Source: Nemertoderma westbladi (Eukaryota; Animalia; Xenacoelomorpha). From it: a stretch of DNA of 64,000 nt. A model generated the notes under the pieces. That model ran no database searches. It was not told the DNA's origin and saw only the letters and a program-made list of their open reading frames with translations. The stretch is from positions 38,805 through 102,804 of the forward strand of contig JAUCBJ010000137.1 in NCBI GenBank assembly GCA_032718475.1, given 5' to 3'. The translations under genes were made by a program, and so were the position numbers. This document shows positions 7,804-58,986 of this stretch, in pieces; the stretch's first letter is position 1; every line of letters starts with the position of its first letter.

Positions 7804-9096
7804 GTTTATGCGATTATTCGCAACATTTATGTCCCCAAGTTTATTCCTACAGTAATTGTGCTTGTTACACATACCGTTATAGTTAAATTAACCCCGGTAC
7901 TACACGGGCTGCTTGGCGTAGGTAAAGACTGGTGACTTTGTGCTCTGGTCACTCCAGCAGATGCCGTGGTTCTTTTAACTGTTCAAGTATATTTAACTGC
8001 TAGTTATCTGTTTTAATAAGTACTTGTACCTAATTTAGGGTTTAGTGTACAGTACTTTCCGAAAGTAATTAGTGTGTAGGCAGTGTATTGTGTTGTAAAG
8101 TGGTTAATATGCACGTTGGATCTGGTAGTCCGCGGTAATTAACTTCTAGGTAGGAACACTCCGTGATACATAACGTAGTACCTATAGCGATACGGCTATA
8201 GGTCGTCAGGCGGTGGTATTTTCCTATCTGGACAGCGCAATATATTTACTACTACTTATTATTTTCAAATACCGTAGTACCCTGTCCGTTGTAATAACCA
8301 GAATTCTAACCCTTTGTTAGGCTGGTTTGTAGACTTCCTGTAAAATTACCCTAAAATTTCATACGTAATATTTTGTTGTGTTTTAATTAAAGAATTAATC
8401 TCACCCGTATCGTACGTAATTTGTAGTATTAAGTAACTTAGGTAAATTAGAATTATCTGTTTTAGTGTCCAATAAGTAGGTAGCACTTCACTGAGAGCGC
8501 ACAGCTTCTGTATAGTGACTCACCCAGAAATAATAACATTTATTTCCAATATTGACAAAACCCATTTTAAACGGTTATATATCTATTCTAAATCAACTCA
8601 AACGATTTATAAATAGTAGGCCTGCCATACAACAACTAGGTCTCAATATCAGTTGGACTACTGCTTAAATAACGGTAATAAAGTAAGTTAAAGTAACTAA
8701 GTAACCTTTAAAATTCAGAAATTCAATTATTTAAATAATTGATATACCGGTATTTACGATAGCCCTATTATCTTTATTTCTATAAATTTAGGCTGAAATT
8801 ATACCGGTATTCTGTAATTAATTCTCGTCCAGAATTATACTTATATATACTATAGGTGCAAGCTGCATACCGGTATTCACGATAAGCCTATTATATATTT
8901 ATATATATTTGTGCTAAAATTATATACCGGCATTCTGTGACAAACCTAGTTTACAATACTTATATATATTATAAGTGTATACCGGTATTCTAATATATTG
9001 TAATTAATTACCGGTACTAGGCCAACGGTCATACTGAATTACTAGACTTGCTTTAACTGTAACTATAGCAGTAAGTATTCCACTGTATAGCTAAAC

Positions 9097-12000
9097 ATGT
9101 CTGACACCCAGCAAAACCTGTCAGACAGTCTAATCGATACAACCATCTGTGACACAGATAGGAGTGTGCAGCGATTAAGAAAGGGGTTCAGCTCACCTCC
9201 TACTGAAAGAAAGGTCATCCCTCCAGTAGTAGTATCAGACCCTAGGCTAATCCAACACCGTAGGTCTATCATCGGCACTCGGGCCCAAGTCAAACGGAAC
9301 CAGGAAGCAGCTGTCCAACAGCAGCAACATCCTAGTCAAGAAACTTGTTCCCAGCGACCCGATACCTCCAGTAGTTCGGATACTGTAGAGCTGACCCCCG
9401 AACGCGGAGTGCAGATGGCGGCTACAGCCTACTCGGATCCCCTTCTCACCCTTCCTGCCGCAGTGCTAACTACTATATTGATTGCGGTGGAGGAACATCA
9501 AGCCGATTGGGCGAGAAGTAAGCGAGCGACCCAAGATAGTTATGCGGGATACGCCAGGGAAGAATTGATGTCTATTGTCGAGTCACAATGGAACTTTCCC
9601 AGACCCGGACTCCCGTTAGATTTGTCCGAAGCTACTTGGGAAGACATACACAGGATGGGAGTGACTAAAGATACGATGGATCCAGCTGTTTGGAAGAGGT
9701 CGGCAGCAGGATATGTGCAGGGATTCTTCGGCTCCTTAGAGCGATTAGAAGAACAACTGTTTCGACAACCCCAAGGACCTCAAGAGCAGGAAGAGCTGCT
9801 ATATCAAGTACGCGAAAGAACCCTACGCATTAGACTAATCCTATCAGCCTTTGAGGAAACTTCCAAAAGAAGACAGGACACGTCGCTGCAGGTTGCTGTC
9901 AAGACTTGGTTCCAGTGGGTAGGTCTCAAAGAACAAGAAACGGCCCAGTGGAAATCCCAGCTGGCTGAAAGACCAACCTATGAAGAACCAACAGATGCCA
10001 CCCTTTCTCAAGAGGAAAGTGAAGGGATAGCAGAGAGACCGCGAACGAGAGACGCCATCGACATCTATCTGTCAGACTATCAACGCTTCTTGGGTGATGA
10101 AGAGTTGAGGAGACGACTGGCTGGACTTCGCCCCAATAGTGAAGGAGCCAAGCTTGTGTTGGACTCAATCGATGCGGAAATGTCAGCTGCAAACCAAGCT
10201 AAATTTGATGAAAAACTCCGCCTCGCTAGAGTCCAAGAAGAACAAGTAAAGAAAAAACGGATAGAGGGCAGAAAGGCAGTAGCAGCGGCGAAAGCGGCAG
10301 CGTCAGTGGAAGAGGCAAAAGCGGCAGCGGCAGTGGAAGCGGCAGAAGCAAAAGCGGCAGCGGCAGTGGAAGCAGCCAAAGCAGCAGCAGCAATGGCATT
10401 GGCAGAAGCAGAACAGAGGGCGTCTGAAGAGACCACACAACTGGAGTTGGAAAATCTTCAAGAGACGCAAGATTGCATAAATAAACAGTTAACTGCTAGT
10501 CAAATGCAGATGAGGAGTCGATCTACTCCCAAGCGCCAAGGATACACATCATCGGAGGAAGGCGAGACCACCGATCCTGAAGGCGGAGGAAATAGATCTC
10601 ATCTAAGCAGGCGTAGAAAAACATATCACCGTCACCAATTGCCTGATTTGCCCCCGGCGGTTAGAAGACAACTAACTAGCACAGACTTAGGTAGTACAGA
10701 ACCCACAGACCAAATTATTAAGGTCAAAGGACTCCCTACCATAGTTGATGAGCCTGAAATAATTAGGCCTGTCGTTCCCAAATCCACTCCTGTGCTAGAG
10801 ACCCCTGTACTTCCAGAGCTTAACTCTAAATTCCCTCTACACAGTACTACACTGCCTGTACCCGGTAGAACAGTCCATGCGAATATCCCTGTCCTGGGCA
10901 CTGAGAGAGAAATCAAAGATTTGTCTCCCGTCGTCCCGCTTCGGCCCGCTACAATGTTAGCGACTCCCGCTTCGGCGGTCGAGTGGGTAGAGGAGGGATG
11001 GCGGGGGATGAATCTCCTGCTCGGACAGATGCAGGAGACTGTCCACCAACTTAAGGGAACAGTAAGGGAAAGTAGGTTAGAATTGCAAGACGTGCAGCAA
11101 AGTATCACGCTGGAACGCGACAAATTAGTCAATATACAAAAGGGTATACCAATACCCCCTGTAGCATTGTGTCAACCTGTTAGGTCTGAAGTATTACATG
11201 CGCAAGGTGTGGAGCCTACACGCATCTATACTGCTAGTGAAGTAGAAACTCCTATAGCAAACCCTATTAAGGGTGATTATAAACCTGTTGTTAATGATAT
11301 TCCCTATAGACCTGATAATGATCCGAGAAATTTATATACCGATAATTCGATATTAAATAACACGATGGCCCAAGAAAGCTTTACGCGTCAGATGGCTAGA
11401 ACAGAAGCCCGCCAAGCGGTCAAAGTGGGAGAGATCGTCAAATTCAATGGAGATGAGATGAAATGGTTACCTTTCAATGAATATTACAAAGACAGCATAC
11501 AGAACTCTGTACTATCTAACGGAGAGAAACTTAGGTTCCTCATCAAGTGCTTGGAAGGACCTCCCAAGTTAATGGCGTTAAAGTTTATTGGACATCCAGA
11601 AGGATTAAGACAAGTTTGGGATACATTAAACATCAGGTATGGTAACAAGGATAACATAGCTAAGTATTTGTATGCAAAATTAGTAGCCCCCCGAAACTTC
11701 CTTAGTAGCGGGATTATAGAGTTTTCCGATGAGATTCAGGAGATCTGTAGACAATTGGACTGGTTAGGTAAGTCTCATGAATATCAGAGTTCCATGGTTA
11801 TTGGAGCAGTAGTCTCTACTTTACCAAAGGGTGGAGTATGTACACACTGGGACAAGAAAGTGTTGTATATGAATGAGCAGCAACGACGAAGCCCTACCAT
11901 GGCTGATCTCATGTCCTTCTTAGATGGTGAAGTAAAACTACAACTCATCAAGCAGTCCAGAGAGAAAACATCGGAAAATAAGGTAAGTGAGAAACCCGTT

Positions 12001-13542
12001 TCTAGGAGAAGAGTAACACCGGTGTGTTACACTGACGACGGCGAAAGCCAAGCTTCTCAAGAAGAGGACAGCGGGAAAGACACTGACCGATCTTACTACG
12101 TTAGCAAAACCTCAAAGGACGTAAGTAAATACAAGGCTCGAACCAAAGATAGGAGAGAACAGGTTGCCAAGACTCCTCCTCAGTCTCCTAACAGAATGCA
12201 CGGAAGAAAGACCGAAGAAAGAACGAGAGTGCATCAAGTTACCCAAGGTAAAGTGAGTAACATCAAACCAAACTGTGCGCTGTGCGACGGGACCCACCGT
12301 TTGAGTGCGTGTGCTGAATTTCTAAAGAAATCCCTTGTAGACAGACGTGCAGTCATGTGGGATAAGCGGTTATGCTATAATTGCCTCAGATCAGGACACC
12401 AACGGCGAACCTGTTACTCCGACGTAAAGTGTGCAAAGTGTGGCGCGAAACATCACATCTTGTTACACAGTGAGTTCGAACGAGACAACCCGAGTCAGGT
12501 AAGTGAGCCCGAACTACATGTCCAATTCAGTGATGTAAATGACACTGATCAAGAATCTGAGATGGAAGGATTCTATACGGACGAATTCTCCGACGCCAAC
12601 GAATCCTGTTACCTAATAAATACCGCAGTGTATCGAGCACTTACGTATGAAAAGGACACTGACAATGAGTTCCCCCCAACTACCTTTGACAGACAACCAT
12701 CTTGGAAAGCGCCAACTTCCAACGTAGGAATCAGAGAATTTCCTGTAGTACAGGTAAGAGTTCACGGTCCTAACAAAAGTTACATAGTGAACGCCCTCCT
12801 TGACTCCGGCAGCACAGGAACATTCATCGATCAAGAACTAGCCGAAGATATCTTTGCTGGACAACCCAAATTCCGGACTAAATTGAATATGTCAGGAATT
12901 ATGCAGGTTTGGAAATCTACCCTAACAGCAGATTACTATGTAGGTGTGTTGTCCACCCCCCAGGATAAATTAGGAGCACAAGGTATAAGGTCGGTAAAAA
13001 TGGTGGCTATAAAGAACTTCGCTACTACCCAAGCAGACCTTTATAATTGGGACGAGGATGAGAGCATCCAACATCTTAAGATACCTCGATTCCAGACAGA
13101 TTATCCTGGAGTGCAAATACTCATCGGCCAAAACGCGCATGAGGCGCTCGAGACATTGGAGAAACGGCCTGCTCAACCGCAGCCACTGCAAACCTATGCG
13201 GTAAGAACTAGAGTAGGTTGGTACTTTACTGGCCCTTCCCGCAGAACTCTCGAAGAGAGAATGCCACAAGAACGAATATACCAAGTAAACGATTGGGAAG
13301 TGGAGAGCAGTGAGGTGGAAGAACTAACTGAGGGAACACCATACTCCTCAGATAATGACGACATCTACCAACACTTCGATGAAGAGAACACAATCGACCT
13401 ACTTACAGAAAACAAAACGTGGAAAAACCAGGTGAACCTATGTCAACTGATTCGCCCATCTGGACCCATTGATTACAATGACGAACTAAATGATGAGATA
13501 GAGCGCTACAACGCTAGAACTCGGGACGAACTCGCCGTATGA
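9097..13542 (+). CDS. gag: Element A Gag + aspartic protease (1481 aa)
   Basis: BEL gag core (KFNGDEMKWLPF...LSNGEKLRFLIKCLEG); knuckles CALCDGTHRLSAC, CYNCLRSGHQRRTC, CAKCGAKHHILLH; protease ALLDSGSTGTFI; Ala-rich coiled-coil repeats. Confidence 0.95.
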   Translation: MSDTQQNLSDSLIDTTICDTDRSVQRLRKGFSSPPTERKVIPPVVVSDPRLIQHRRSIIGTRAQVKRNQEAAVQQQQHPSQETCSQRPDTSSSSDTVELTPERGVQMAATAYSDPLLTLPAAVLTTILIAVEEHQADWARSKRATQDSYAGYAREELMSIVESQWNFPRPGLPLDLSEATWEDIHRMGVTKDTMDPAVWKRSAAGYVQGFFGSLERLEEQLFRQPQGPQEQEELLYQVRERTLRIRLILSAFEETSKRRQDTSLQVAVKTWFQWVGLKEQETAQWKSQLAERPTYEEPTDATLSQEESEGIAERPRTRDAIDIYLSDYQRFLGDEELRRRLAGLRPNSEGAKLVLDSIDAEMSAANQAKFDEKLRLARVQEEQVKKKRIEGRKAVAAAKAAASVEEAKAAAAVEAAEAKAAAAVEAAKAAAAMALAEAEQRASEETTQLELENLQETQDCINKQLTASQMQMRSRSTPKRQGYTSSEEGETTDPEGGGNRSHLSRRRKTYHRHQLPDLPPAVRRQLTSTDLGSTEPTDQIIKVKGLPTIVDEPEIIRPVVPKSTPVLETPVLPELNSKFPLHSTTLPVPGRTVHANIPVLGTEREIKDLSPVVPLRPATMLATPASAVEWVEEGWRGMNLLLGQMQETVHQLKGTVRESRLELQDVQQSITLERDKLVNIQKGIPIPPVALCQPVRSEVLHAQGVEPTRIYTASEVETPIANPIKGDYKPVVNDIPYRPDNDPRNLYTDNSILNNTMAQESFTRQMARTEARQAVKVGEIVKFNGDEMKWLPFNEYYKDSIQNSVLSNGEKLRFLIKCLEGPPKLMALKFIGHPEGLRQVWDTLNIRYGNKDNIAKYLYAKLVAPRNFLSSGIIEFSDEIQEICRQLDWLGKSHEYQSSMVIGAVVSTLPKGGVCTHWDKKVLYMNEQQRRSPTMADLMSFLDGEVKLQLIKQSREKTSENKVSEKPVSRRRVTPVCYTDDGESQASQEEDSGKDTDRSYYVSKTSKDVSKYKARTKDRREQVAKTPPQSPNRMHGRKTEERTRVHQVTQGKVSNIKPNCALCDGTHRLSACAEFLKKSLVDRRAVMWDKRLCYNCLRSGHQRRTCYSDVKCAKCGAKHHILLHSEFERDNPSQVSEPELHVQFSDVNDTDQESEMEGFYTDEFSDANESCYLINTAVYRALTYEKDTDNEFPPTTFDRQPSWKAPTSNVGIREFPVVQVRVHGPNKSYIVNALLDSGSTGTFIDQELAEDIFAGQPKFRTKLNMSGIMQVWKSTLTADYYVGVLSTPQDKLGAQGIRSVKMVAIKNFATTQADLYNWDEDESIQHLKIPRFQTDYPGVQILIGQNAHEALETLEKRPAQPQPLQTYAVRTRVGWYFTGPSRRTLEERMPQERIYQVNDWEVESSEVEELTEGTPYSSDNDDIYQHFDEENTIDLLTENKTWKNQVNLCQLIRPSGPIDYNDELNDEIERYNARTRDELAV

Positions 13543-16308
13543 TTCTTTACTCAAGAATTGGTAGAGCCCAATTCATACGATAAGGCCCTATCGATAGAAG
13601 AAGAAAGAGCCAAGCAAATCCAGGAAACATCTACCCGTTTTTTAAAAGATCAAGGCAGATATGAAATCGGCCTACCATTGCGAAAACGAGAACCTAGATT
13701 TATAAATAACAGACCCTTGGCAGAGAAAAGAATCACTCAATTACATCGACGCCTTACGGCTAACGCTTCAGCTAAAGAAATGTACCAAACTCAATTGAAG
13801 AAATTTATTACAAAGGGATACGCGGAGCGAGTACCGGAAGGAACACCAGTAACTGAGAGAACGTATTACTTAACACATCATTACATTCCCAAACCCGGTA
13901 AACCCCATGAAGTACGAGTCGTATTCGATGGCTCTGCTCTATATATGGGCCAATCCCTCAATTCCGAGTTGTTACCAGGACCCAACTTACTCCAATCCTT
14001 GTTGGGAATACTTTTAAGATTAAGACAATATTCCATCGCGTTCGCCTCCGATATAGAAGGAATGTTCTTACAAGTCAAGGCGCTGGATAGAGATAGAGAC
14101 AGCCTGAGATTTCTGTGGTGGCCTGAAGGAGATCTCAACCAGAAACCGGTAGAGTACTGGATGACCATCCAGGCTTTTGGGATCATATCAAGCCCTTCCA
14201 ACGCCTGCTCCGTGGTGCGGACCACTGCGAATGACAACCAAGACGCCTTCTCAAAAGAGGTGATAGACAACATCAAGCGTAATATATACATGGACTATAA
14301 TTTAAGGTCCCTTCCATCAGTAGAAGAAGCCATTGATGTCGCGAAAGGAACGGTAGAGTGTTTGAAAAGAGGTGGATTTCGACTGACGAAATTCACTAGC
14401 AACTCCCGTGAGTTTCTGGAAGCGATACCGGTAGAAGACCGAGGAGCGAAAGACCTAGACTTAATAAAGGATGATCTTCCAGAAACCAAGACGCTTGGCT
14501 TGAAGTGGGACACTGAAAGAGATATCCTGTTTTTTCAGCTAAAACAGCGAGATAATCCAGTTCAGACCAAACGGATTTGTTTAAGTATCCTGAGCACTTA
14601 TTTCGACCCATTGGGATTTATTAGCCCAGTTATATTGATTGCTCGGAGTTTAGTACAACAAATGTGGCTTGAAAACCACTCATGGGACGATCCACTTAAG
14701 GGAGAACTGTTAAAGAAATGGATGAAATGGGAAGATTCTCTACCTGCCATCGAGAGCTTTGTAATTTCCCGTGCATATTTTGGTCATGTTCTTCCTACGT
14801 ATTCCTATCAACTCCATGTGTTTGGAGACGCCAGCGACATGGGAATAGGTATAGTAGCATATCTGCGAGTCGAAACTCCTGATGGAATCAAAGTCGCCTT
14901 GGTTACCTCTAAGGCATTGATTAACAACAAGTTAAAGGTTCCTCGAGCGGAGTTAAAAGCTGCTTTATACGCTACAGCCATCGGCCGGAACGTAACAGAA
15001 CAAATCGACTATTCACTGGAGAAAACTGTTTATTGGACCGACGCCTTACTCGTGTTGGAGTATATAACCAATGAAGTCTGTCAGTTCAGCGTTTTTGTTA
15101 CTAACAGGGTAGCTATTATTCTTAGTCGCACAAAGATAGATCAATGGAGACATTGCCCTGGTACGATTAATCCAGCCGATATCGCCTCCAGGGGAGCGAC
15201 TCCACAGGAACTGATAGATACTCCAGACTGGTTGAGTGGACCCGACTTCCTGAGTAAGGAAGAGGATGAATGGCCTCCTCACCTTACTACTGCGGAGATT
15301 AGACAAGCCAAGGGAGCGGAGAAAGTCAAACCTAAAACCCGGGCGAGTAAATCGAAGTTATTTAAACCGACGATCGATCTATCTGTATTACATACTTCCG
15401 GAAACGATGCTTCGGATCCACAATCCCTCGCCACAAATAAGTCTGTTGTGGAAATTAGAGATAGAGATTGGAAATCTGGAACACCAGACGTCTCGCAAGG
15501 AATCTCACCCCTGCTGCAGAGAGCAATGCATAACTACAGTTCCTGGAATCGGCTCTGTAAAGCCGTCACATATTTAAGGCAATGTTTTCATCATCACTAC
15601 TCCAAGACGAAGACCATTAGTGATAACGCTCCATTGACATCTGCGCAAGTTCATGTTATTAAAAATTTACCCAAATATAAGACATCCGACCGGTTTCTAA
15701 AGGAAAAAATCAGTTACCAAGAGCATGAAGAAACCAATAAGCAGATACTGAGACTCCTGCAATGCTATGAGGATTCCGATAAGTACTTCCTGTTGTTGAG
15801 AAATCCGCAGATGCGCTTAAGGGATCGCTTCTCTAGCACAATGATAGATGGGTTAATACGTGTTGGAGGAAGGCTCACCAATGCGCCATTATCCTTTGAC
15901 ACTAAATTCCCCACACTCATTAGAAATCTTGAAGTACAAATCAAGATGATTGTAGATGTTCACAGTAAACTTTATCATGCTGGTAGAGAACGAGTTCTTA
16001 GCGAAATTCGAACTCGCTATTATTTTGATAAACCCCGTAGAGCTCTGAACCAAGTTCTTAGGAACTGCATACCCTGTAGGAAAGCATTCAGTAGGCCTTT
16101 AACACAGCGAGAGGCAGAATTACCTAGGGAACGAGTAAGCTTCTATGAACCACCTTTTACCAATACTGGTGTAGATTTATTTGGCCCTATTGAAGTATAT
16201 CGTGCTAGGACTATAGTCAAGAGATGGTGTGTCATCTTCGTATGCATGACTTGTAGAGCCATCCATCTCGATATGGTGAACGATCTATCTACCAACAGCT
16301 TCGTCTTA
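13543..16308 (+). pseudogene. pol: Element A RT, RNase H and N-terminal integrase; in frame after a TGA; RT motif YMDY; cut by B
   Basis: RVVFDGS, SLNSELLPGPNL, SDIEGMFLQV, NIYMDY (second catalytic Asp lost), HVFGDAS, PRAEL, WTDA, NPADIASRG, HHCC motif, GVDLFGP. Confidence 0.95.
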
Positions 16309-18325
16309 TGTTAAACAAACTACCCCGGCCTAACCAATAAAGACACAAAACTGCTCTATTTATTAGACAGGGCAATCAGGAGCGTATTATTGCTAATGTG
16401 AGGGGCTGCTAAATACAAAACCGCTACTTACCATTAGATGGCGCTAACCTGCCGTCCGCTAATATGTTTTACTAATTTTCTACGGCTCCTGCTAATTTCT
16501 TGTTCCTTTCTCTACCAATTACTCGATAGAGAGCTAACTGTTCGAATATATGAGCCACGCGGGAATAACCAAAACAACAAACCCGAATCGGCTCCCTAAG
16601 CTGACTTAAAACGAGTGTGAGAGGTTTTACACTCAGAGTATATTCTTACGCCTAATCTTACTGTTAAAGTACGCCAATGCCTACGTCTTTTCTAATCGCG
16701 AATACTGGGGGTTCCCTAACGGAATGTGTGAATGCGAGAATATTTAAAATAATCAAAGTGGTACAGTGTTTATTAGGGCTAATACCTATAGTGGGACTAA
16801 ACTTGTCTGCGGCTGGCTTTAGGCCAGCAAATTACTAATGCGTTTTGCGTACTGAATACTGCTATCTAGCTTATTGCCCGCTAATTCAAATAACCGCCCA
16901 GCGTGAATAGTTAACGGTACTCTAATTATTACCTTAGCTACTCTCCGCTATGCTGCGTACTAATTCTTAATTTTACTAATTAATTACAGTCACAAATATG
17001 TAACAGCCTAAAATACTGTATTACTTTGACCTAATCAGTAATTATTTACAGTAAACTAAGAGATAGAAATCAATCAAAGGGAAAAGAGCGCCTATCTAAG
17101 CATTCGTAATCTTAGGCACACTTTAGTAACACACCAATCAGCGTCAGCAATCACAGCTCGCAATGCGCGATTCGCAATTGTACAATCCGCAATGCACGCA
17201 ATTCGCAATTACACAGCACAATATAATAATTCGCAATACATGCAATTCGCAATTGTAAAGCACGCAGACCTCTCCCAGGTACATCTAGGCTTCCTAACTA
17301 ACCCAATTTCTGCCCCCTAACGCTACAAATTGAGACAAAATCTGGATCATCAGCCCCCTAATTACTGTACCAGCGAGCTGCCCCCACGATACAATGCAAA
17401 TTGCCCGACCGCAACGGTGACCCCCCGCCAGCGTTGCTCGCCTTTGAATCCTCCGCTCCCTTCGTCGCTAACCCCCCGATGTGCCCACCGCCTACTGGCA
17501 CCTTAGCCCTCCATTATGCTAATAGCTACCGTAGCGGCGCATGCAAATCACAAAGTCTGACAGTCTAAAGAAATCCCGTGGGATTATTGCGTAGAAAGGA
17601 ATCACATAGAACCATTAACAAAAGGTAGAAATCATAGTTCCGGTTGTAATTAGCAGTAATCGATAGGATTAATTGAGAAACACAATCAAGAATAATCGCA
17701 CTAGCAAATCATTTTAAGAAATTAATCGAAAATAGCAAATTGCAGAAATACGCTAAAATATCCGTCAAAAAGGTGAATAGGGACAGCTCAGCAAGTACAG
17801 GGGTGATAGCATGAGCTCTACCGGCAAGCCGCCAATTTATAGGTGATCCGAATGGGGTGATGCAATAGGGTGACTCAATCGCTCTCCTATTGGCTCTCCA
17901 GTCCGCGCTAGCATTAGACCAAGCTGGAAGCAGTTAGTCCAATAAGGAGGCCGGATTGTAGCCCTATTGCTGCCCAAACCTCAAATTATTACCATATATG
18001 GTAATGGATCATGTCCCTGGCTGCTGAATGGCCAGGACAGCGTCCCTATATGCTAGCCCTATTGATGCTAATATCAGCAAGCACAAAATCCAGGGTCCGA
18101 CTAAACTTGCTACCCTGGAACTATCTACATATATCCTAAAACAAAATTACGTAGGTAGGGCTACATATTATACAAAATGGATGGATTCAAATATATGGGC
18201 GTTTTGGTTTCCTTATCTAAATGTCACCGCACTGTGCCTTATCTAAATAATTATACTGCACAATAACAAACATATTATACTGTATGATGGCTAATAATGT
18301 GGATACAGCGCCATATACCGTAACA
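16309..18325 (-). repeat. 3' LTR of element B (2017 bp)
   Basis: Direct repeat of 30828-32843; preceded on the minus strand by the PPT. Confidence 0.97.
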
Positions 18326-18332
18326 CCGCTCC
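18326..18332 (-). promoter_or_regulatory. Short polypurine tract of B (GGAGCGG)
   Basis: Plus-strand CCGCTCC abuts the LTR; same heptamer as A's PPT at 39662-39668. Confidence 0.75.
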
Positions 18333-19587: not shown

Positions 19588-20579
19588 CTAGACGTATATA
19601 TCAGAGCGACGATGATATATAAAGGATTGGACATATTCGGGCTTAGTAATGCGTTCGTCGAAACTTCCCGAAATAATTTGGAGTAAATATCGTATAAACC
19701 GCGGATCGTGGGTATAGTTAGTAGACGGATGGACGGCGCGAATCTCGTCTGGATACTCAGGCGTGAGCTTCCTCTCCTGGTGAAGCGAAGTGAACGTGAT
19801 CCAGGAACTCGAGTCCCGTGCCGCTTCGCGCCGCGCCTCTAGGTCCTTATAGGCTCGGTATAGCGAAATGGCCGCTGCCGTCTCTATCAAACTGGGTGTC
19901 GAACAGGGTTTAATCTCCGTATATGGATCTAAAGTCGTAACGGTCGGCGTAATGGGTCTCGGAGGTCGCTTTCCGCTGAAGTCGATACTGATCATCGGGT
20001 GCTCATCGGGTAACCTCCCTCGTTATATCTAAGGAACTGGTGAGCTTGACATCGCGTTAATATCGGTTCTGGATGTTGCTCGTCTAGTCGGTCGGGAATC
20101 GCCACGTCTTGCTTATTCATGCATTCACCACACTTGTAGAACAGCTTGAACACGCTGAAGACTTTCGGCGTCTCCTGATCCTCGCCTCGAGTCCTCCGGT
20201 ACAGATGCATTCCGTCGAACTGATCTCGGATTGCAGGTAGAGGTTCTTCGTGTCGTAAATACATATTCATATGGTACAGTCGTGCGATCTCCTCATCCGG
20301 GTCTGCACAAATGTCACATACGTCCAAAGCGAAGTCGTAAGGATACCGAGTGCGATACTCTCTCCGCAAAACTTCCATCCGGTCCCCCAACGCTCTCATT
20401 CTTTCCCTCCGTAATTCCTTATCATAAGTCGGTTTATATTTTCCGTTTAGCTCCATCACGGACCGCCCATGGTAGTAAACGTTAGAGTCTTTACATCCTG
20501 GTCGCGCGAATGGTAGCTCCGCCTCCTCTCTGGCAGTAAATCCTCTGCGCGGTTGCGCTCTAATATCCTTCTCCATCAT
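19588..20579 (-). CDS. Element B accessory ORF3 (195 aa + 135 aa, AUGA overlap/frameshift at ~19995); homologous to the N-terminal part of A ORF3
   Basis: TRYP...DPDEEIARLYHMNMYL...PLPAIRDQF...FYKCGEC...RCQAHQFLRY then PMI...RPP...TLDP align with A ORF3. Confidence 0.85.
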
Positions 20580-21339: not shown

Positions 21340-24300
21340 CTAATTCTGTTTTGAGGCAGGAGACAAACTATAATCTCCCGTCTCGATACGTGTCTCCTCT
21401 AACAACACGATATCTTGGACCGGTCGGTCCAAGGTGTGTAAACCATTAGTTTTACACTTCTTTGGGTGCGGACACTTGCACCTAATTTTCACAGTGACTG
21501 TGCGCACTATGTTTTGCACGTCTGGGTGTATATGCAAGATCACTCCCGTCTCCCAATACTTTCTCTTGACAATAGGTTCGGTTATCAGTACGTAATCTCC
21601 CTTTTGGAGACTCCGAACCGTTTTGTACCACTTTGTTCTGGTGGATATGGTGGGAAGATAATATTCCCGCCAATATTCCCAGAATGTGTACGCCACAAAT
21701 TGTGTTACTTTCCAGCTTTTACGACTATATAGGTCGGCACTAATGGGTTCTGATGCCGGCACAAGAAATGCTGGACTCTGCATTAGCAAATGATTCGGCG
21801 TTAATGCAACACCGTCTGGCAACATAGCTATCGGCCTCGAGTTTAGGGTATGCTCGATTTCAATGAAAGCTGTGACCAGTTCGTCGTCGGTAAGTTGTTT
21901 GTTCACAGGCAATGTTTTGGCAATGGCCTGCTTTACAGAGCGAACTAAACGCTCCCAACTTCCTCCTCTCCAAGGACTTTCTGGAGTATTAAATCTCCAC
22001 TCTACTCGTTGCGGCAAAAGTGCTGCAGAAATTTCCTTATTCTGTGCCGCTTTATGAGCCGCGTTCAACTCGCATATTCCCCCCGACAAAGTTTGTACCC
22101 TTATCGGAGTAGAACGCCTTTACTAGTCCTCTCCTGGCCATAAATCTCTTTAAGGCCAGGAGCAGAGATTTGGTCGACATGTCTGCCACACGCTCAATAT
22201 GTATGGCTCTACTAGCCATGCATGTCAGTAGCAGACCCCATCGCTTGTGGGTCAGCCGTCCACTCTTTGCTTCAATCGGACCAAAACAGTCCACCCCTGG
22301 GTTCGTAAAGGGTGGGTCATATGCCTGCACTCTCGCTTCCGGGAGTTCAGCCATCTCCTGTTCCAATACTCTGGCGTTCACCCTCTTGCAAACCAGACAG
22401 GCGTCATACATAGTGCCTGCTGCCCTGCTTGGCTGCAATAGAATGAATCGCTGTCTCGCTGCCGACAAACAGTGTAACCTTCCCGCGTGATGCAACCTCT
22501 TATGTATATCCCATAAAATCGCTCTTTGCAATTCTATTGGGTGACTAGGGATTATCACTGGGAACCTAAACTGTGAGTTAATGTCGACAGTCTGGATTCT
22601 CGATCTATGACAAATCAAACCCTTATGGATTAATGGACTCCATTTTCTAAGGGGTTTATAGAGAACTGGTCGTTGAGCCGATAATAGATGGAATTATTTT
22701 GGGAAGGCACACATTTGATAATGTTTCAAATGCTTTAATTCCGCTTGATCAATCTCATCCTCTGTCAGAGGTTGTTTCAATTTTCGAATTCGCTCACTAT
22801 TAGTGCTCAATGGTTCTCTCAAATGTTCCGAATGTTTTATACAAAGGTACGAAACGTATCGGCTTAACCACGCAGTTCTTTTACAAATTGTCAGCCAAGA
22901 GGCAGACGAATTTAGTAATTTGTCATAAACACTGCATGACTCTAATGCCAGCGACGGTTGTCCGCTAACTAATGGAAGTTTCGAATCCAAACCCGCAGGT
23001 TTGGAAACCAAAGGCTCCATTGTGTCGGTCATTTTCTGTCCGTCACTTACCAATTGTGACTCCGATTTAGTCTGTAAGGGTGGTTTTATGTCATAACTTA
23101 CCCTTCCGGACCTAGTAGTCACGTAAGTCTGTTGGTCTGACAGGTCTCCGGGCCGCTCCAATGACTCTTCAGGCCGCTCCAATGACTCTTCAGGCCGCTC
23201 CAATGACTTAAGTTTGGCTTTAGACTTCGACTTAGAGACTTTCTCCACCTTAACTTCTGCATCTTCAGGCATCGGATTGGTCACTATCTTTAGTCGCTCT
23301 GGCCAATGTTCCTGTGTCCTCGTTAGAAAATCAGGTCCATGCAACCAAAACTCCTGCGACTCTTCCTGACAGAATTCCGCCGGCATTGCACCTCTCGAAG
23401 TTATGTCGGCCGGGTTCAACACTCCCGGACAATGTCTCCATTGTTCCTTCGTCGAAAAATCAACGATCTGAGCGCGTCTGTTGGCCACAAATGTCTTTAG
23501 TGCAATATTGTCAGCCGCAATGTATACTAACACCAAGGATGCATCCGTCCAATAGAATAAGGTCAATGTCGTGTCTAATTCCTCTGTTATTTGCTTACTT
23601 ACCTCGACCGAAACTACAGCCGCCTGTAACTCTGCATGAGGGACAGTCATGTATTTGACCGGCATTGTCTTTGATCTAGAAGTCACAAAAGCCGTCTCAA
23701 ATTTGTCCTGACTTACCTCTCGGCGAAGGTAGGCTACCATACCAAAGCCGGTGTCACTTGCGTCGCTAAATAGATGCAGTTCTAAATCAGCTGGGAATAC
23801 CAGCTGATTCGGAAAGTAGGAACGGGGTACATCTATATTTTTCAATAGATGCAACTCGGCTTCCCACTCCCTGCACTGCTTTGCATGTATAGGAGATATT
23901 GGTTCGTCCCACTCTAGGTCGGATAACCAAATTTTCCTCATGCACGCTCGTGCCTGTAATATAACCGGACTGATAAAGTTCATCGGGTCAAATAGTCTAC
24001 TCAAAGTTGATAAGCAAATTCTCTTTGTCAAAACTTTGTCTGGGCTACTGGGCTCAAATCTAACTCTTACCTGGAACTTATCTGAGTTCGGGTTCCAAGC
24101 GAGTCCCAGTACTCGCGCCATGGGAATTGGTTCTACCCCCAATTCTATGTCTCCGCTCCCGCGATCTTTCACCGGGAACGATTCTAATAGGGCCTCCGAG
24201 TTTGTAGTGAACTTGGTTAGAGGAAAACCCCCTGTAGCCAAGCACTCCTGTAGGCCGTGAGCCACTTCTATGGCTTGTTCCGCTGTGTCCTTGGACACCA

Positions 24301-27300
24301 ATCCGTCGTCCATATAGAAGTTTCTCAAGATGGACTCGATAACCTCTACTGGATACTTACCAATCTGGGCTGTTGCCGTTTTCTTTAAAACAAACAGCGT
24401 GCCATTTGGACTATCGCGGGCGCCAAATATCCTAACGTACATCTGATATGTAACCACTGGGCCGGATAAGTCTTCATTCTCAAACCAGAGAAATCGAAGG
24501 CTATCCTGGTCTGCCTTACAGGCTCTTACCTGGTGGAACATCGCCTCGATGTCACAAGTAAATGCGAATCGCCGCTGTCTAAAACGCAACAGTATTCCAA
24601 TCAAATAATTATTCAGGTTGGGACCATCCATCAACTCTGAATTCAGGGACATACCTCTATAGACTGCTGCGCAGTCGTTGACTACTCGGACTTTGTCTGG
24701 CTTGTCAGGGTGAGTCACATAGTGGTGTGGAAGGTAATAAGTCTGGTCTGTCACTAAGTCAGGGTCCTCTACCTTCCCAGCAAATCCCTTGGCGAAATAG
24801 TTGTTGATCTGGGCGCAATACTTCTCCCTAATGTCCGGATTCTTCAACAACCGAGCCCTTACTCCGTTTAATCTTTTCAAGGCTAAGTTGTAGTTGTTCT
24901 CCAGCTTAGGTGGTTGTCGACGCCACAACATTCCAGCTTCAAAATGTCCAGTCGGTAGCAGACGTATGGTGTCTTCCATCATCTCCAACGACCGTTTCTC
25001 ATCAGTAGACATGGCTAGGTCATATCCACCGGGTTCCATTGCGTCCCTATCCAGCCATTCGACGGTTCTGGCTCCTGTCTCGAGGTCCTGGTGTATCAAT
25101 TCCTTCTGTAATTCCTCCTCACTGTATTGGAAAATGTCTAGGTCTCGATATTTAGCCACTTGACCCTCCACTATGTCTGTATAAGTCAAAACGTTAGTCA
25201 GATAAGTAGCGTGGGCCGCTAAACCAGACCCACGGGTCTGATAACAGTAGTGCTCGGGTTCACTATCTGTCTGGTCGTTGTGAAGTGGTTCCGACAACCT
25301 AACATTATCGGGAATCAACTCCTCGTCCGACTCGCTAAAGTCACTATAGTGGTCAATACAGGTTCTCCTAAACTCGTCTAAGTCTGGTGGTTCTACTAAC
25401 GGTGGTTGAATTATAGGCTGTAATTCGTCGTATCTGTCTATTGGCTTGTCGCCACCTGTAAACTCATAAGACATGGGTACTCTTGTATACCAACCTAGTA
25501 TGGTCCTATGGGCATGCGGTCCATTGACATGCGGCTCAGCTGGTCTCGTTTCCCATATCTGGTGTGCGATCAGCTGTTCTGCACCAATCAACATAGAAAC
25601 ATTCCTATAACCTACCTGGTGTCTCGGTATCCTGAGCTTGTCAAAATACTCCTGTGCTATGGGACTCATCGGCGGCACCTTACCTAACTGCCTGCCGAAT
25701 CCCTTCATAGCTAGACACTTAAATCCGTCCAATGGCAAAGCTTTCCGTTCTTGTCGAGTATGTTGGTCTCTCGGAAGTAGGGAATCTAGTTCCACTGAAA
25801 TTCTGTGTCCCTTGAGGTCTCCTACCCCATGCATAGACTTCAACTCTATTTGGATCTCCTCTGCGTCCTGGAAGCTAGAAATGGCTCTCGCCACTTCCTC
25901 GTCGATATAAGATAATGTGGACGCAGTGTCCAACATCACATATATTCGCTTCGATCCCTTATCGCCAGTAAGTTTCACCGGAATCACGCTAAATATTTCC
26001 GACGTGGCCAATGATAAATACGTCCGCGCGCTGGTCGATGAACTATCCGCGGTGAAACCTTGGCAGGTCACTTCTCTTGCGCTCGACTCGCCATCCTCAT
26101 CCGACGAACCTGGTTGGTAACCATCGTCCTGGATGCCGGTGTACGTATTTCTCCTTATCGATACGGGTTCTTTGCTCCCCTTCCTGTGAGGATTTCGCTG
26201 TAAGTAACGGTCCGTCGGGGTGTGGAAATCCGCATGTAGCAACTTGTGATGTAGTCTGCCGCATTCCATGCATCCGTCATTGCTGTTCGGGCACTGCCGC
26301 CGTACATGGCCTGGCGCAAGACATGCCCAACAGGTGTCCAACGTCCGCACTTGAACTCTTCTCTGTTGCGAATTTAATTCTTTGAACCGTCTGCAACTAT
26401 CTAACTTATGATCGTCAGATCTTACCTCCTTTAGTAAACAGTATTGGCAACCTACAAATCCATCCGGCAACTCCTGTTGCTTTAACCTAGGTCTATCTAA
26501 CCGCTCACCTGACCATACTCGCGAGTCTGATCTAAAGGCTGGGGTACTCGAATTATATCTGTCTACTGAGTTATAAGTCACAGTGGTCCTGTCATTGTCA
26601 AAACTTACCATAGACTTACCGGTAACAGGTTTAGACTCCCTCATATTCTCCTCTGAGAAGTTTGATTTCATCTCTGCTACTGCGTCTGTGGCTATCATGT
26701 CATGAATGTGCTGAAGTGTCAACACCTTACCTTGACCCTCCAACTTATTCTCTAATTTGCGCCATTTCTGTCGATAACGCATGTTTAAACGTCTTATTAC
26801 ACTCTTCAAAACTTCGGCGTGATCACCATGATAGAGGTAGATTCACCGTCCTCAAGATGTCCAATGCGTTCGAAATAGCGTTCGCTAAGTTCAACAGCTC
26901 TAACGGAGTTGTAATCCTTCCGCCCTTACCCAAGTCTTCCACTATCGACTGCGCCATCTTGGTTTTATTCCCGTAGATGTCACTAAGCGTCTTCATTGCC
27001 AACTCAAATGCCCTTTCATTGCCGACGAAGTTATCAGCAATGGCTCTAGGTTCTCGATGGAGCATCTGAAGCAAATAGTTGAACTTCTCGTTGGGAGTAA
27101 AGGTGCTGTTGGTTAGCTGCTCGTCGACATAGGTTTTAAAGGTCCTCCAGTGCTTATGGTTGCCCATAAACTTCTGGGGTTGTTGCGTCGGCAGTCCTTG
27201 CCTAGCAGCAAACTTACCTATGTCCCTAAGGGTTGCGTCGTTCCGGGTTAACAAATGGTTTAGTTCCGCAGGGTTGTTAAGTCTGGTCCTTTCCCGGGGA

Positions 27301-29643
27301 TTGAAACTTACCTGCTCCGCGTCCGTCCTTCTTTCCTTATAGTTTCGGGACTTCTGACGTCTCATGTCTTCCTCTTCATCACTTGACTCGGTGTCAGTCC
27401 TTAGCGCTCGCGATGGTTTGCGCGCCGAGGCCCTGACCCAAGCATCTTGTATAATTTTCTCAGCCGAATTTTCGAAATTGGGATTATGAATATTCGGGAC
27501 AGGCGTCCTTACCTGAGGTCTATGTGGTATAGTCTCCTCCGATATGCGTACTCGTTGACTAGGCTGGACTTTATCTAACTCAGGCCTGCTAGGATTTGAA
27601 TTACTTCTTACCTGGGCTGCTTCCTTTAACCGTAGGTTGCTAAGCATGTCCATTATAGGTTGGATGTGCGGCGATATAGCTTGCGCTAAACTAGCACTTA
27701 ACTCATCCCTCGTAATAAATTCCTGGCTAGGGTTCTGTTGTATAGTCGGCTCTATCTGAGTAATCCGCTGTCTCTCATATGATCGCTCTTCCGGTTTAAC
27801 CCGGAAGTTCTCCGTCGAACTGGGTCGGCGCTCCGTCCGCGTATTCCAAACCCGCGGGTTTGGTTCGCCAAGTACCGTCGGAGTTTCTCTAAACTCTTCA
27901 TCGTCGTGTTCGGTGTGTAGTGGTGCGGTGTTCTGATGCCGTGGATTCTGCGCGATAGGTGAAGCACTAATACCAACTGGCGTGCGATATGTAGAGAACG
28001 GTTTAGCGATCCGTGTACTCGTAATAGCTGGACCGGGTATAGGAATTCTGGTCGTCGTCGTCTCGCGTATGGTCGGAGTTCTCGCTTCCTGTTCGGCCTT
28101 CTGCAGTGCGAACAGTTCTCGCAACTCGGTCCCTACACTCGCCCCACATTCTTCGATCATTCGCATCCCCTTCTCGGCGATTTCATTCGCCTTCCTGGTC
28201 CGTTCTTCGCTCTCTAAATTTAATCTCGCACTTTCTAACTGCGCCAGTTTACGTTCTTCTTCTTCCCTCGCTCGTCTCGCTGCGCTCTCTTCTTCCACAC
28301 GCGCCTTTTCTTCATACAATGCGCGTCTTCTTTTTTCGATCTCGAGTTCGCGTTCCTTGCGTTCGCGTTCGAGTTGAAGCTCGCGTTCCTTCTGTTCACG
28401 TTCGAGTTTCTTGCGCTCGCGTTCGAGTTGAAGTTCGCGTTCGAGTTGAAGTTCGCGTTCTCTCTGTTCGCGTTCGAGTTCCTTGCGCTCGCGCTCGGCT
28501 TGAAGCTCGCGTTCCTTTTGCTCGCGTTCCGCTCGTTCGCGCTTACTTATGTCCTCCAACTCTCGTAGCTCTGCGTCCAACTTACGTGTGCGCTTCCGCC
28601 TGTTGTTCGTCCAGTCGGCGTCTTCTCTCCTCCGCCAAGTTGTGAGAAACAAGGGATCTGGCACATATAACTTTCCCTCGCGCGTGACTAACCTGGGAAT
28701 CGCCACTGTCTCTAGATGCATCGTCGGGTGGAGTTAACGTTCTCTGTTGGATATTCTCCGTCGTCGGTAGCACCTGGCCTGGTACCACCACTCCATTCTG
28801 CATCAGCCAGCTAGTAACTTCCCTCTGATAACGGCGCTCTTCTTTATCTTGGATCTCTTCCCGCTCCACTAAGTCTCTCAACTCTGCGTCACTCACCTGA
28901 GTCGCCTGCGCTTGTGATGCCCATAGCAGCCAGTTCTCCGTCCTTACTCGTCGGAATCGCTCCGATAACTCGCGGTGCTCCAACAAGGCTGCTAAAACCC
29001 TGTCGTAAATCCTCATCGCCACGTCGCTCGACTGAGACTCTACTGCCTTCTTCGCTAGGACTGCAAGCTCCTCCGTCTGCTTGAATAACGCTGAGTTGTA
29101 TCCTCTTCTAATCTCTACTAACTCTACCCTCCCGATGTTGGCTGAGTCAGCTAACATCTTCCTTACCTTGTCCGTCGTCCGAGTTATATGTCCGGCATGT
29201 GCGCGAAGTTTCTTCTTTATCGCGATATCAAGTTCTCTCTCGCTTACCTGACTCACACTCGGTGGACTTGAAGGATTATTTCGGGAACTACGGGTACTCC
29301 TAACAGCCGTCGGGACCACGGCACTTACCATACCCACAGGTCTGGAAACCGGGCTCCGGGCTCTCGCTTCTGCTACACTACTCTCCCTATCACTCACCTC
29401 TGTCCGGGCTGCTGTGCGGTCCTTCCTTACAGTAGCGGTAGGGGATCCTAATACTATTATCTCTGGTTGTTGTTCTTCCTCACTAGTCACTGTCTCATCC
29501 TCCTGTTCACTTACGTCAGCGTCGCTCGCTGCGTCGTCATAGTCGGCATTGTCGTCAACAGTTATGTTTACGCTATCGTCAGTCGGTGGTCCAGCCGCCG
29601 TCTCGTAGCTGTCCTCTAGTGCCTCTTTGTCTGAGACACTCAT
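21340..29643 (-). pseudogene. gag-pol: Element B gag-pol, disrupted by frameshifts (~28590, ~26840, ~22080) and an in-frame TAA (22694-22696)
   Basis: E/R-rich coiled coil, KFMGNHKHWRTF, three Cys/His knuckles, MLDTAS protease, FYMDD RT, LFSDAS RNase H, GVDCFGP / SDKGTNF / GSWERLV integrase. Confidence 0.95.
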
Positions 29644-30489
29644 AGTCTAAATAATGTTTGCCTTCCGGCAAAATATCTCGCAAAAGTTCGAGATATAATT
29701 ATAATTTAACCGAAATATGGTCAAATTATTTGTCTAATAATCAGTTGGTCCAAAATGTCAAATAAATTCGCAATGCAATATTGTGAATTTAATGGGGTAT
29801 AGTTATAGCAAATACTAGCACAATATTTAAACAAAATATTATTATATAGCTACTATATAGTATTAAATACCGGTATGACACAAAATAACTTTGAATCTAA
29901 TACAAAATATTCAAAATAAACTTGCCACCCGAATATTTCTAATTTTATATATATAGCTCTAATCAACGTAATTTTAATTTCAAATATTATATGTATCCAC
30001 TAGCGCGTGGCTACATCTTCGGGTTGCGACTCTCTCTAACTCTCTCTCTAACTTGAGCGATTCAAAAAACCATGGCCGGCTAAACCTAAATATCCTAACT
30101 AATAAATTGAGTTCAGCTTCGCAGTTAAACAACCGATAATTTTTACTGCTTCCACAAACACAATGGTGCCAACAGAACAACTAACCTTGTTTGCTGTGAG
30201 ATTCCACGTCCGCATCCAAAGATTCAGGCCCTTCGCTGATTGCAAACCGAACCCGCAGATCCACACGAACCCCAAACTCAGAAGTATCTCCAGATGGTAT
30301 AAAATAACTAAGCGGTTACCTAACATACCGGTACAATACTCTAGAATTTTACAAATAATTTTGACCGAAACTGAATTCTCGCAAACCTAGCTAAAATTTT
30401 CAAAACTTACTAATTACAGTTTGCCCTAAGGCCTAAGGAACTGCTGTATTCGCAATTAGTAAAAACGCACTACCGTACATCCACTGTAT

Positions 30490-30827: not shown

Positions 30828-32843
30828 TGTTAAACAAACTACCCCGGCCTAACCAATAAAGACACAAAACTGCTCTATTTATTAGACAGGCAATCAGGAG
30901 CGTATTATTGCTAATGTGAGGGGCTGCTAAATACAAAACCGCTACTTACCATTAGATGGCGCTAACCTGCCGTCCGCTAATATGTTTTACTAATTTTCTA
31001 CGGCTCCTGCTAATTTCTTGTTCCTTTCTCTACCAATTACTCGATAGAGAGCTAACTGTTCGAATATATGAGCCACGCGGGAATAACCAAAACAACAAAC
31101 CCGAATCGGCTCCCTAAGCTGACTTAAAACGAGTGTGAGAGGTTTTACACTCAGAGTATATTCTTACGCCTAATCTTACTGTTAAAGTACGCCAATGCCT
31201 ACGTCTTTTCTAATCGCGAATACTGGGGGTTCCCTAACGGAATGTGTGAATGCGAGAATATTTAAAATAATCAAAGTGGTACAGTGTTTATTAGGGCTAA
31301 TACCTATAGTGGGACTAAACTTGTCTGCGGCTGGCTTTAGGCCAGCAAATTACTAATGCGTTTTGCGTACTGAATACTGCTATCTAGCTTATTGCCCGCT
31401 AATTCAAATAACCGCCCAGCGTGAATAGTTTACGGTACTCTAATTATTACCTTAGCTACTCTCCGCTATGCTGCGTACTAATTCTTAATTTTACTAATTA
31501 ATTACAGTCACAAATATGTAACAGCCTAAAATACTGTATTACTTTGACCTAATCAGTAATTATTTACAGTAAACTAAGAGATAGAAATCAATCAAAGGGA
31601 AAAGAGCGCCTATCTAAGCATTCGTAATCTTAGGCACACTTTAGTAACACACCAATCAGCGTCTGCAATCACAGCTCGCAATGCGCGATTCGCAATTGTA
31701 CAATCCGCAATGCACGCAATTCGCAATTACACAGCACAATATAATAATTCGCAATACATGCAATTCGTAATTGTAAAGCACGCAGACCTCTCCCGGGTAC
31801 ATCTAGGCTTCCTAACTAACCCAATTCCTGCCCCCTAACGCTACAAATTGAGACAAAATCTGGATCATCAGCCCCCTAATTACTGTACCAGCGAGCTGCC
31901 CCCACGATACAATGCAAATTGCCCGACCGCAACGGTGACCCCCCGCCAGCGTTGCTCGCCTTTGAATCCTCCGCTCCCTTCGTCGCTAACCCCCCGATGT
32001 GCCCACCGCCTACTGGCACCTTAGCCCTCCATTATGCTAATAGCTACCGTAGCGGCGCAGGCAAATCACAAAGTCTGACAGTCTAAAGAAATCCCGTGGG
32101 ATTATTGCGTAGAAAGGAATCACATAGAACCATTAACAAAAGGTAGAAATCATAGTTCCGGTTGTAATTAGCAGTAATCGATAGGATTAATTGAGAAACA
32201 CAATCAAGAATAATCGCACTAGCAAATCATTTTAAGAAATTAATCGAAAATAGCAAATTGCAGAAATACGCTAAAATATCCGTCAAAAAGGTGAATAGGG
32301 ACAGTTCAGCAAGTACAGGGGTGATAGCATGAGCTCTACCGGCAAGCCGCCAATTTATAGGTGATCTGAATGGGGTGATGCAATAGGGTGACTCAATCGC
32401 TCTCCTATTGGCTCTCCAGTCCGCGCTAGCATTAGACCAAGCTGGAAGCAGTTAGTCCAATAAGGAGGCCGGATTGTAGCCCTATTGCTGCCCAAACCTC
32501 AAATTATTACCATATATGGTAATGGATCATGTCCCTGGCTGCAGAATGGCCAGGACAGCGTCCCTATATGCTAGCCCTATTGATGCTAATATCAGCAAGC
32601 ACAAAATCCAGGGTCCGACTAAACTTGCTACCCTGGAACTATCTACATATATCCTAATACAAAATTACGTAGGTAGGGCTACATATTATACAAAATGGAT
32701 GGATTCAAATATATGGGCGTTTTGGTTTCCTTATCTAAATGTCACCACACTGTGCCTTATCTAAATAATTATACTGCACAATAACAAACATATTATACTG
32801 TATGATGGCTAATAATGTGGATACAGCGCCATATACCGTAACA
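30828..32843 (-). repeat. 5' LTR of element B (2016 bp)
   Basis: Direct repeat of 16309-18325; sense-strand TATAAA at ~32354-32359 and CCAAT at ~32408-32412. Confidence 0.97.
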
Positions 32844-32848
32844 TCTTA

Positions 32849-33712
32849 AGTTTACGCCGACAGATCGCTCGCTTCGGGACGAGTAATACCATGAGATCGG
32901 ATAAGGGAACGAACTTCATTGGTGCCAACAACGAAATCCAGGCTTACGTGAAGGACTGGAACCAAAGACAGGTGGACGATCAGCTAAGGATAACAGCGTC
33001 TAGCTGGACCTTCAACGCCGCCGACGCCCCTTGGTGGGGAGGAAGTTGGGAGAGATTAATTAGAAGTGTCAAGACCGCATTTCACTTTATAGTGCCATGC
33101 CGCGCGTATCTCACCGACGAACTTTTGCGGACATTAATGGAGGAAATAGCTGCCTATCTCAACGAGAGACCGCTTATGCCAGTCTCATCGAGTCCCGATT
33201 CCCTGGAAGCGCTAACACCCGCACACTTCCTACTGAAGAAACATGTAGCCATGCTCCCACGATCGGAGATTGCCGACGGAGACGAATACTGCCGTCGAAC
33301 TTGGCAACTTATGCAGTTGCTATCCCTTCGTTTCGCTGACCATTTCGAGAAACATTATCTGCCCACGCTACAACTTCGAACTAAGTGGTTTGCGCAGCAA
33401 GAAAACGTCAGCGCCGGAGATATGGTGCTTATTGTAGATTCAGACCTTCCACGTAAACGGTGGCAGACAGGTCGTATCATCGAGACTCACATCTCGGATG
33501 ATGGTTTAGTACGCTCGGTAGAACTCGTCGTCATGCGGCGTAACTTCAAGAAGCCAGGTATAATCTTTGAGACGCAACAACTCAACCGCCCAGTTGGTCG
33601 TTTATGTTTACTGGAAAGAGACAGAGAACTCACCGGAAACTATGGAAGGCAAGACACTCTTCCCACGACCACCTCCCTAATTCCTCAAACATCTAGGGAC
33701 TCCCCAACGTGA
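32849..33712 (+). pseudogene. pol: C-terminal part of element A integrase
   Basis: RSDKGTNFIGA, APWWGGSWERLIRSVK, LNERPL, LTPAHFL, GDMVLI, DGLVRSV, RPVGRLCLL. Confidence 0.95.
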
Positions 33713-48943: not shown

Positions 48944-49169
48944 TAAATATAACGAAAATATCGTGTCGTTTTTAGCAAAAAATACAAGATGAAAAGGCTA
49001 TCCAAATAAAGGATATTATATACAAATATACTTAAAATCATGCCGCCATAAAGTGGTAAATGATCGTTTGTTTTGGTTAGAAATGACCACCTTTGTAGCC
49101 TTCTCATTTCTCGTAATTGTTAAGGTGATATTTTATTGTTTTGCTTAGAAATACCCGTACCTGGAACCT

Positions 49170-58974: not shown

Positions 58975-58986
58975 AGCCACGCCAGG

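Follow-up and report, generated by a model that had tools for sequence, protein, structure and literature searches.

A Cys/His Domain of No Recognised Family Shared by the Accessory ORFs of Two Nested BEL/Pao Retrotransposons in Nemertoderma westbladi

Two nested BEL/Pao retrotransposons of Nemertoderma westbladi, elements A and B, carry accessory ORFs downstream of pol that share a Cys/His domain of ~100 residues ending in CxxC-x16/23-CxxH (Table 1). Non-env accessory ORFs of LTR elements are already known; the domain itself is real, its variation points to selection on the protein sequence, and it belongs to no recognised family. The original prediction had taken this domain for the core of the two accessory ORFs, and this held: it is the part common to both, homologous, not of env type, and, as it seems, selectively maintained, and we found neither a confident match to a host or env domain nor a lack of significance in the pairwise alignment. 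All positions refer to the window, i.e., the whole 64-kb stretch of DNA analysed.

Host elements

Element A spans 5574-40839 on the plus strand (18,726 nt without B), and element B, which spans 16309-32843 on the minus strand (16,535 nt), is inserted within the integrase of A. Both show the hallmarks of BEL/Pao elements, namely paired LTRs with TG...CA ends and a target-site duplication, and Pfam detects DUF1759, Peptidase_A17 (E ~1e-36), Integrase_H2C2, and DUF5641 in each, arranged in the PR-RT-RH-IN order of a BEL-type gag-pol. Both Gags bear Cys-His boxes. Over 1171 nt, the two LTRs of A show 5 mismatches and 1 gap, the 3' LTR deviating at its first bases; the LTRs of B, over 2016 nt, show 11 mismatches and 2 gaps (>99% identical in either pair). 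Judging from these few differences, both insertions are young. Each has a target duplication of 5 bp. The pol region is frame-broken in both copies: the 5' part of the A gag-pol has one in-frame stop at ~13540 and is broken off by the insertion of B, and the B gag-pol is split into five frames or pieces in this copy.

BEL/Pao elements are known from animals only, according to the account drawn on here (PMC554778), and published ones usually measure 4.2-10 kb, with LTRs of 0.2-1.2 kb (PMC3118150). At 18.7 and 16.5 kb, A and B are therefore giants, about twice the usual size, with long leaders and Gags and, in B, 2-kb LTRs. The leader of A measures ~2.3 kb and contains 38-nt and 289-nt repeats. 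A strong hairpin at the junction of the B 5' LTR and leader (30714-30843, minus strand), which ranked third of 874 windows, may be a primer-binding or packaging structure.

Table 1. Positions of the features of elements A and B in the window.
Feature	Position	Strand	Remarks
A 5' LTR	5574..6744	+	~1.17 kb; 5-bp target duplication GCCTA
A gag-pol, 5' part	9091..16311	+	DUF1759, protease, RT/RNase H, integrase H2C2
B 3' LTR	16309..18324	-	2016 nt; 5-bp target duplication TCTTA
B accessory ORF, second frame	19588..20022	-	PMI..RPP..TLDP and C-terminal part
B accessory ORF, first frame, from first ATG	19992..20579	-	Arg-rich stretch, then shared domain
Shared domain in B	20010..20351	-	TRYP, helical part, CxxC-x23-CxxH
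B gag-pol	21340..29646	-	DUF1759, Peptidase_A17, H2C2 integrase, DUF5641
B 5' LTR	30828..32843	-	
A integrase, C-terminal part (DUF5641)	32844..33712	+	Resumes beyond B
Imperfect hairpin, ~45 bp, A spacer just 5' of accessory ORF	35152-35257	+	Candidate cis RNA element
A accessory ORF, first frame	35338..37854	+	Open frame 35323-37854, 843 residues
Shared domain in A	35812..36105	+	CxxC-x16-CxxH; basic loop; conserved H-P, R before third Cys
A accessory ORF, second frame	37683..39590	+	Frame break within overlap 37683-37854
A 3' LTR	39670..40839	+	

A and B likely form a clade. They grouped together against the database relatives in a FastTree phylogeny of 122 RT-RH sequences (support 0.999) and again under IQ-TREE with LG+C20 (100/99), where the set comprised A, B, and every fourth pol match (30 of 120); as no outgroup was included and A and B sit on long branches, this grouping falls short of proof. 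The best 120 pol relatives listed all carry PF05380 and are 39-45% identical, and those with names come from fish and marine invertebrates. Since A and B group together against all database pol relatives, the simplest account would be that the domain was inherited once from a common ancestor, as opposed to two independent captures. The argument from retention in two divergent families thus survives in part: the domain is retained in both, but because A and B group in the pol trees the retention is probably not independent. Element B probably either lost A's further modules or never had them.

Elsewhere in the window, an uninterrupted acylphosphatase ORF (44301-44846, plus strand; PF00708, E 3.6e-20) with a hydrophobic N-terminal stretch is probably a host gene, and a Cys-rich ORF (53102-53836, minus strand), whose ends are hydrophobic and which includes a Thr run, resembles a GPI-anchored surface protein and has no Pfam match. 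There are also a gypsy-like protease/RT fragment and two probable non-LTR RT remnants (61014-62534, plus; 54319-54801, plus; and 58943-59539, minus), as well as tandem repeat arrays at 46363-47521, 48636-49006, and 41940-42336 with 37-nt, 27-nt, and AT-rich units.

Accessory ORFs

Between pol and the accessory ORF lies non-coding DNA, 1.6 kb of it in A and 0.76 kb in B, and both ORFs are frame-broken in these copies. The first frame of A contains the shared domain, a predicted coiled coil, an unassigned middle, and, near its end, the first exonuclease motif, while the second frame contains an RNase D-like exonuclease, Cys clusters with a CCHC knuckle, and a basic C-terminal tail (15 K/R in the last 40 residues). 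The domain heads the A accessory protein, upstream of the RNase D-like region and the knuckle. TIGR01388 (RNase D) matched 48 residues of the second frame (E 4.6e-4), with a score well short of the cut-off for the family, and the Exo motifs were placed by eye on either side of the frame break; Pfam gave no exonuclease match in the A accessory ORF. The knuckle (38817-38858) is a weak match to zf-CCHC_3 (E 0.006), and the long helix or coiled coil downstream of the domain is predicted by a low-confidence model.

In B, the region 19588-20579 is made up of two frames here, 19992-20648 and 19588-20022, which overlap by 31 nt. A length difference inside this overlap was observed in a large share of the family contig depth in all four runs, which suggests that the frame break is confined to this copy or to some of the copies and is not family-wide. 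A tblastn search of the B accessory region with the second frame of A gave no match to the exonuclease/knuckle region, in line with the expectation that B is without these modules. B also has no clear basic C-terminal tail inside its ORF, and a suspected likeness between the C-termini of B and A was not significant in shuffles. The B stop is followed by a GC-rich stretch (19181-19587, minus strand) that contains short open frames and has a short direct repeat on either side, near 19125 and near 19600. In some family B contigs ~650-750 nt are skipped here, and the six variants within it favour no single coding frame.

The ORFs had been said to occupy the env position without a signal peptide or transmembrane segment, and so they do. 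The maximum 19-residue Kyte-Doolittle hydropathy of the four frames was 1.21, 1.10, 0.36, and 0.70, which leaves no membrane or signal-like stretch; the signal peptide and transmembrane anchor expected of an env or fusogen were thus found by hydropathy in none of the four, and the accessory ORFs gave no Pfam match to F-, G-, or gB-type glycoproteins. Upstream of the accessory ATGs, a loose splice-acceptor pattern did not exceed background, and a strict one was present in B only.

The imperfect hairpin in the A spacer had a z score of -4.5, was matched in stability by none of 200 shuffles, and ranked second of the 874 windows taken across both elements. It is a candidate response element or small-RNA precursor. 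Because the structure in the B spacer is weaker (z -3.35) and without sequence likeness to it, we regard the A hairpin as a lead only. Rfam gave no match over 5500-41000 at E 0.1.

The shared domain and its homology

The motifs quoted in the original prediction were recovered where they had been placed in both elements. In A they lie in one open frame (TRYP at 35812, CxxC at 36004-36015, RCxxH at 36061-36075, PMI at 36166, and TLDP ending at 36237), and in B, on the minus strand, TRYP is at 20351, CxxC at 20132-20121, and RCxxH at 20054-20040. The aligned core runs in the order TRYP, DPxxE, a helical part, CxxC, a loop with a common H-P, and RCxxHxFxRY, with a loop of 16 residues in A and 23 in B. 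The first frames of A and B aligned by blastp with E 3e-13 (32% over 163 columns), and their alignment score of 142 was reached by none of 2000 shuffles (mean 37, maximum 73), so the likeness of the Cys/His domain in the two accessory ORFs goes far beyond chance. It had also been supposed that B could be read continuously as far as TLDP. The motifs are indeed present, but PMI..RPP..TLDP lies beyond the frame break: the second-frame piece of B scored no better against the whole first frame of A than 526 of 2000 shuffles, which is not significant, and against the collinear segment of A alone the result was marginal (p ~0.025).

The four putative zinc ligands are aligned between A and B. In the 843-residue frame of A the only CxxC and CxxH motifs are the two of the domain, and B has one additional CxxC, within an insertion. 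The most basic 20-residue stretch in the first 340 residues of A (8 K/R) falls on the zinc loop. The domain likely binds one zinc ion through CxxC...CxxH, which we judge from the ligand pattern, the structure models being of pLDDT 45 and 34. Searched with a profile of the domain, the 64-kb window yielded only the copies of A and B.

Constraint on the protein sequence

Identity between A and B in the domain core (41% over 98 residues) is at the level of the integrase segments (40% and 42%), between those of RT-RH (47%) and gag (30%). Identity at third codon positions is near saturation in the domain (32%), as it is in RT-RH (33%), which indicates that the likeness is at the protein level and is not due to recent copying.

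For variation within family B, we used 40 of 144 differences, chosen by the program as those with the best support; 14 of the 40 fall within the first frame. All eight sites segregating at 10-97% of X1 depth in this frame were synonymous, as against 29% expected (p 5e-5); the figure applies to family B only, contig depth is not copy number, and X1 and X2 are one sample. At five other listed sites this copy differs from nearly all others, so that the changes are likely private to it; four of these five are non-synonymous, which fits decay after insertion, and the one rare listed site is synonymous. In the second frame, 4/7 segregating sites were synonymous (p 0.12), and the other six listed sites comprised four non-synonymous and two synonymous ones. 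The integrase, taken as a control, had 6/7 segregating sites synonymous (p 0.003; 40 of 347 differences). No variant site among the 40 best supported of 144 lies in a ligand codon. The excess of synonymous sites, together with integrase-level conservation at near-saturated third positions, argues for selection on the domain, and to this extent the supposition of a real function was borne out.

Family B contigs lacking residues 50-160 are present in all four runs. Their internal deletion, which corresponds to 20102-20430 of the window, preserves the frame and removes most of the shared domain, and the deleted form is the only one there in X5. Such a deleted form speaks against essentiality in cis; it fits action in trans and also a dispensable gene.

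Searches for relatives

That the domain matches no known host or env domain was upheld in every library searched. Pfam, NCBIfam, and PHROGs gave no match to it; no PDB sequence matched it below E 0.2 (best E 0.23); and an HMM built from the two sequences found no relative among 1.84 billion representatives at E 0.001. In a 90% protein database, none of 275 candidates (lengths 463-1476 only) was confirmed for residues 100-330 of A. For the A exonuclease/knuckle region, none of 1875 candidates was confirmed. The ESM Atlas yielded no usable match for A, and leads under 0.9 for B only. In IMG/VR, none of 133 pattern matches was confirmed for the domain, and a search for related BEL loci with flanks found none. 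Two metagenome loci (2 of 68 matches) were rejected as chance matches of 22-23 residues in bacterial DNA without BEL genes. Because a two-sequence profile is short-reaching and unannotated animal transposons are poorly represented in the libraries, 'orphan' is to be understood here as undetected. The AlphaFold2 models (pLDDT 44.6 and 34.2) were too poor for a fold search, and those run with them were uninformative (best Z 4.0, rmsd 4.9, 72 aligned in a wide search; best E 2.1 in BFVD). We found no published account of the domain or of such a BEL/Pao ORF in the literature covered, the scope of which excluded Repbase, Dfam, GyDB, and most subscription journals.

Two known families were considered and rejected. 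The THAP signature has CCCH ligand order, a C10 to C54 spacing with ~43 residues between the second and third Cys, invariant Pro and Trp, and an AVPTIF box (PMC3479173). Both copies of the domain share the C,C,C,H order, but the THAP loop is far longer than their 16 and 23 residues, they are without the invariant Trp, the AVPTIF box is not common to both, and Pfam THAP does not match the domain at E 10. A THAP-like box in B was discarded since it depends on residues in the two-frame overlap, and as regards the beta-alpha-beta fold of THAP, the domain model had a pLDDT of 44.6. Membership in Erv1/ALR was rejected likewise: the weak matches to ALR chains among PDB sequences had E 0.23-0.26, and PF04777 matched one B fragment at E 0.12, with 13.2 bits against a gathering cut-off of 27.6, and no A fragment.

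Possible roles of the domain

Our preferred reading, to which we give a probability of about 0.4, is by analogy: the domain may be a trans-acting, zinc-stabilised RNA-binding regulator of the element's own unspliced RNA, working like CERV. In Cer1 of C. elegans, the CERV ORF takes the place of env; CERV is reported to have no homologues outside nematodes, and genomic RNA export depends on its Cys loop and on an Arg next to the loop (PMC10309623). The ORFs of A and B resemble it in position, after pol, and in not being env, and CERV is likewise restricted to one lineage. They differ in that Cer1 is a Ty3/gypsy element while A and B are BEL/Pao; in that the CERV finger is described as C4 while the domain is C3H; in that CERV is joined to gag-region exons while the domain ORF has its own ATG; and in that the function of CERV is established while that of the domain is proposed by analogy. 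The profile search, which found no relative of any kind, detected no kinship with CERV, beside which the domain is set by description.

On this reading, the accessory ORF would be expressed from an RNA of its own, spliced or subgenomic, given the non-coding DNA between pol and the ORF. Zinc would steady the basic loop, which would bind RNA; the protein would enter the nucleus, where the basic tail of A may serve it, and recognise a structured part of the full-length RNA, whose export or stability it would thereby license. The most plausible role would be to help unspliced genomic RNA out of the nucleus, the part that CERV plays for Cer1. B would be the minimal form, to which A would add oligomerisation and RNA-processing modules. 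The reading is supported by the RNA-type modules neighbouring the domain in A (RNase D and knuckle, both weak matches), and also by the homology and constraint described above, the aligned ligands, the basic stretch on the zinc loop, the lack of a membrane segment, the hairpin in the A spacer, and the precedent of CERV. Against it speak the C3H ligands as opposed to C4, the splice-acceptor patterns, the absence from B of a sequence counterpart to the hairpin and of a clear basic tail, and, in part, the deleted forms of family B.

The domain has also to be weighed as an anti-silencing factor, in which the module's partner would be a silencing protein or small RNAs, and the A exonuclease would trim or destroy guide RNAs, so that the family would be shielded from piRNA or RNAi control. 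Counter-defence proteins usually evolve fast. The domain, unlike them, is as conserved as the integrase, and B retains it without the exonuclease, so we consider this role unlikely, if worth pursuing in view of the RNase D-like domain fused in A, the great abundance of family B (8731 X1 contigs aligned to 5.9 kb), and the occurrence of related DEDD proteins in small-RNA pathways, a role considered for rotifer ORF3s (PMC5408684). We are similarly doubtful of a DNA-binding transactivator of the long LTRs (1.17 and 2.0 kb) with a C2CH-type finger: the ligand order is as in THAP (PMC3479173) and A has a basic tail, but the THAP spacing, Trp, and Pfam match are absent as described above, and the partner modules in A are of RNA type.

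A basic, putatively zinc-binding module, which in A comes with a knuckle and a predicted coiled coil, might be a nucleocapsid-like extra module that helps particle assembly or RNA packaging with Gag in the cytoplasm. This is quite improbable, because both Gags already have Cys-His boxes and the basic C-terminal tail of A suggests a nuclear protein. It is very improbable that the ORFs are non-functional relics or a divergent env or fusogen. Their position, the broken frames, and the circulating deleted forms of B would agree with it, but pol is likewise broken in both copies, no signal or membrane segment is found, and neither the synonymous excess in the family variants nor the integrase-level conservation with saturated third positions fits a relic. 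Erv1/ALR oxidases carry an FAD-binding His-Asn motif. This is absent here, and in A the CxxC is followed by Pro-Arg-Pro, so that a degenerate Erv1/ALR-like thiol oxidase using CxxC as its redox site, suggested by the sub-threshold matches in B, is hardly credible.

The LTR retrotransposons Juno and Vesta of bdelloid rotifers, like A with its weak RNase D match, have a non-env ORF with an exonuclease downstream of pol; their ORF3s include DEDDy (RNase D-like) proteins and are typically made from spliced messages (PMC5408684). In the section of that report cited here, no upstream CxxC...CxxH domain is described for them and their within-genome variation looked neutral, while the domain studied here is under apparent purifying selection; B, in turn, has the domain and no exonuclease. 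Other BEL/Pao elements, such as roo, Tas, Cer7, and the elements with a chuvirus glycoprotein, have a third ORF after pol as well (PMC554778, PMC13524379, PMC3118150), but theirs are described as envelope or fusogen ORFs whereas the accessory ORFs of A and B are predicted to be soluble.

Significance

Where an LTR retrotransposon has an ORF other than env in the env position, the function of that ORF is mostly unknown, according to the account of CERV (PMC10309623), itself a clear solved case. The present domain is small, intact in A, without detectable relatives, and constrained at the level of the integrase, and since B has it in minimal and A in elaborated form, a direct test is easy. Should it be an RNA-export or anti-silencing factor, BEL/Pao elements would regulate their RNA like complex retroviruses, and a new zinc-binding fold may accompany this. 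It is conceivable, though rather doubtful and again by analogy, that a giant BEL/Pao lineage has evolved its own Rev/CERV-like regulator, an undescribed C3H module recognising an RNA element such as the A hairpin; if so, complex-retrovirus-style export control would have been invented independently once more, in Belpaoviridae.
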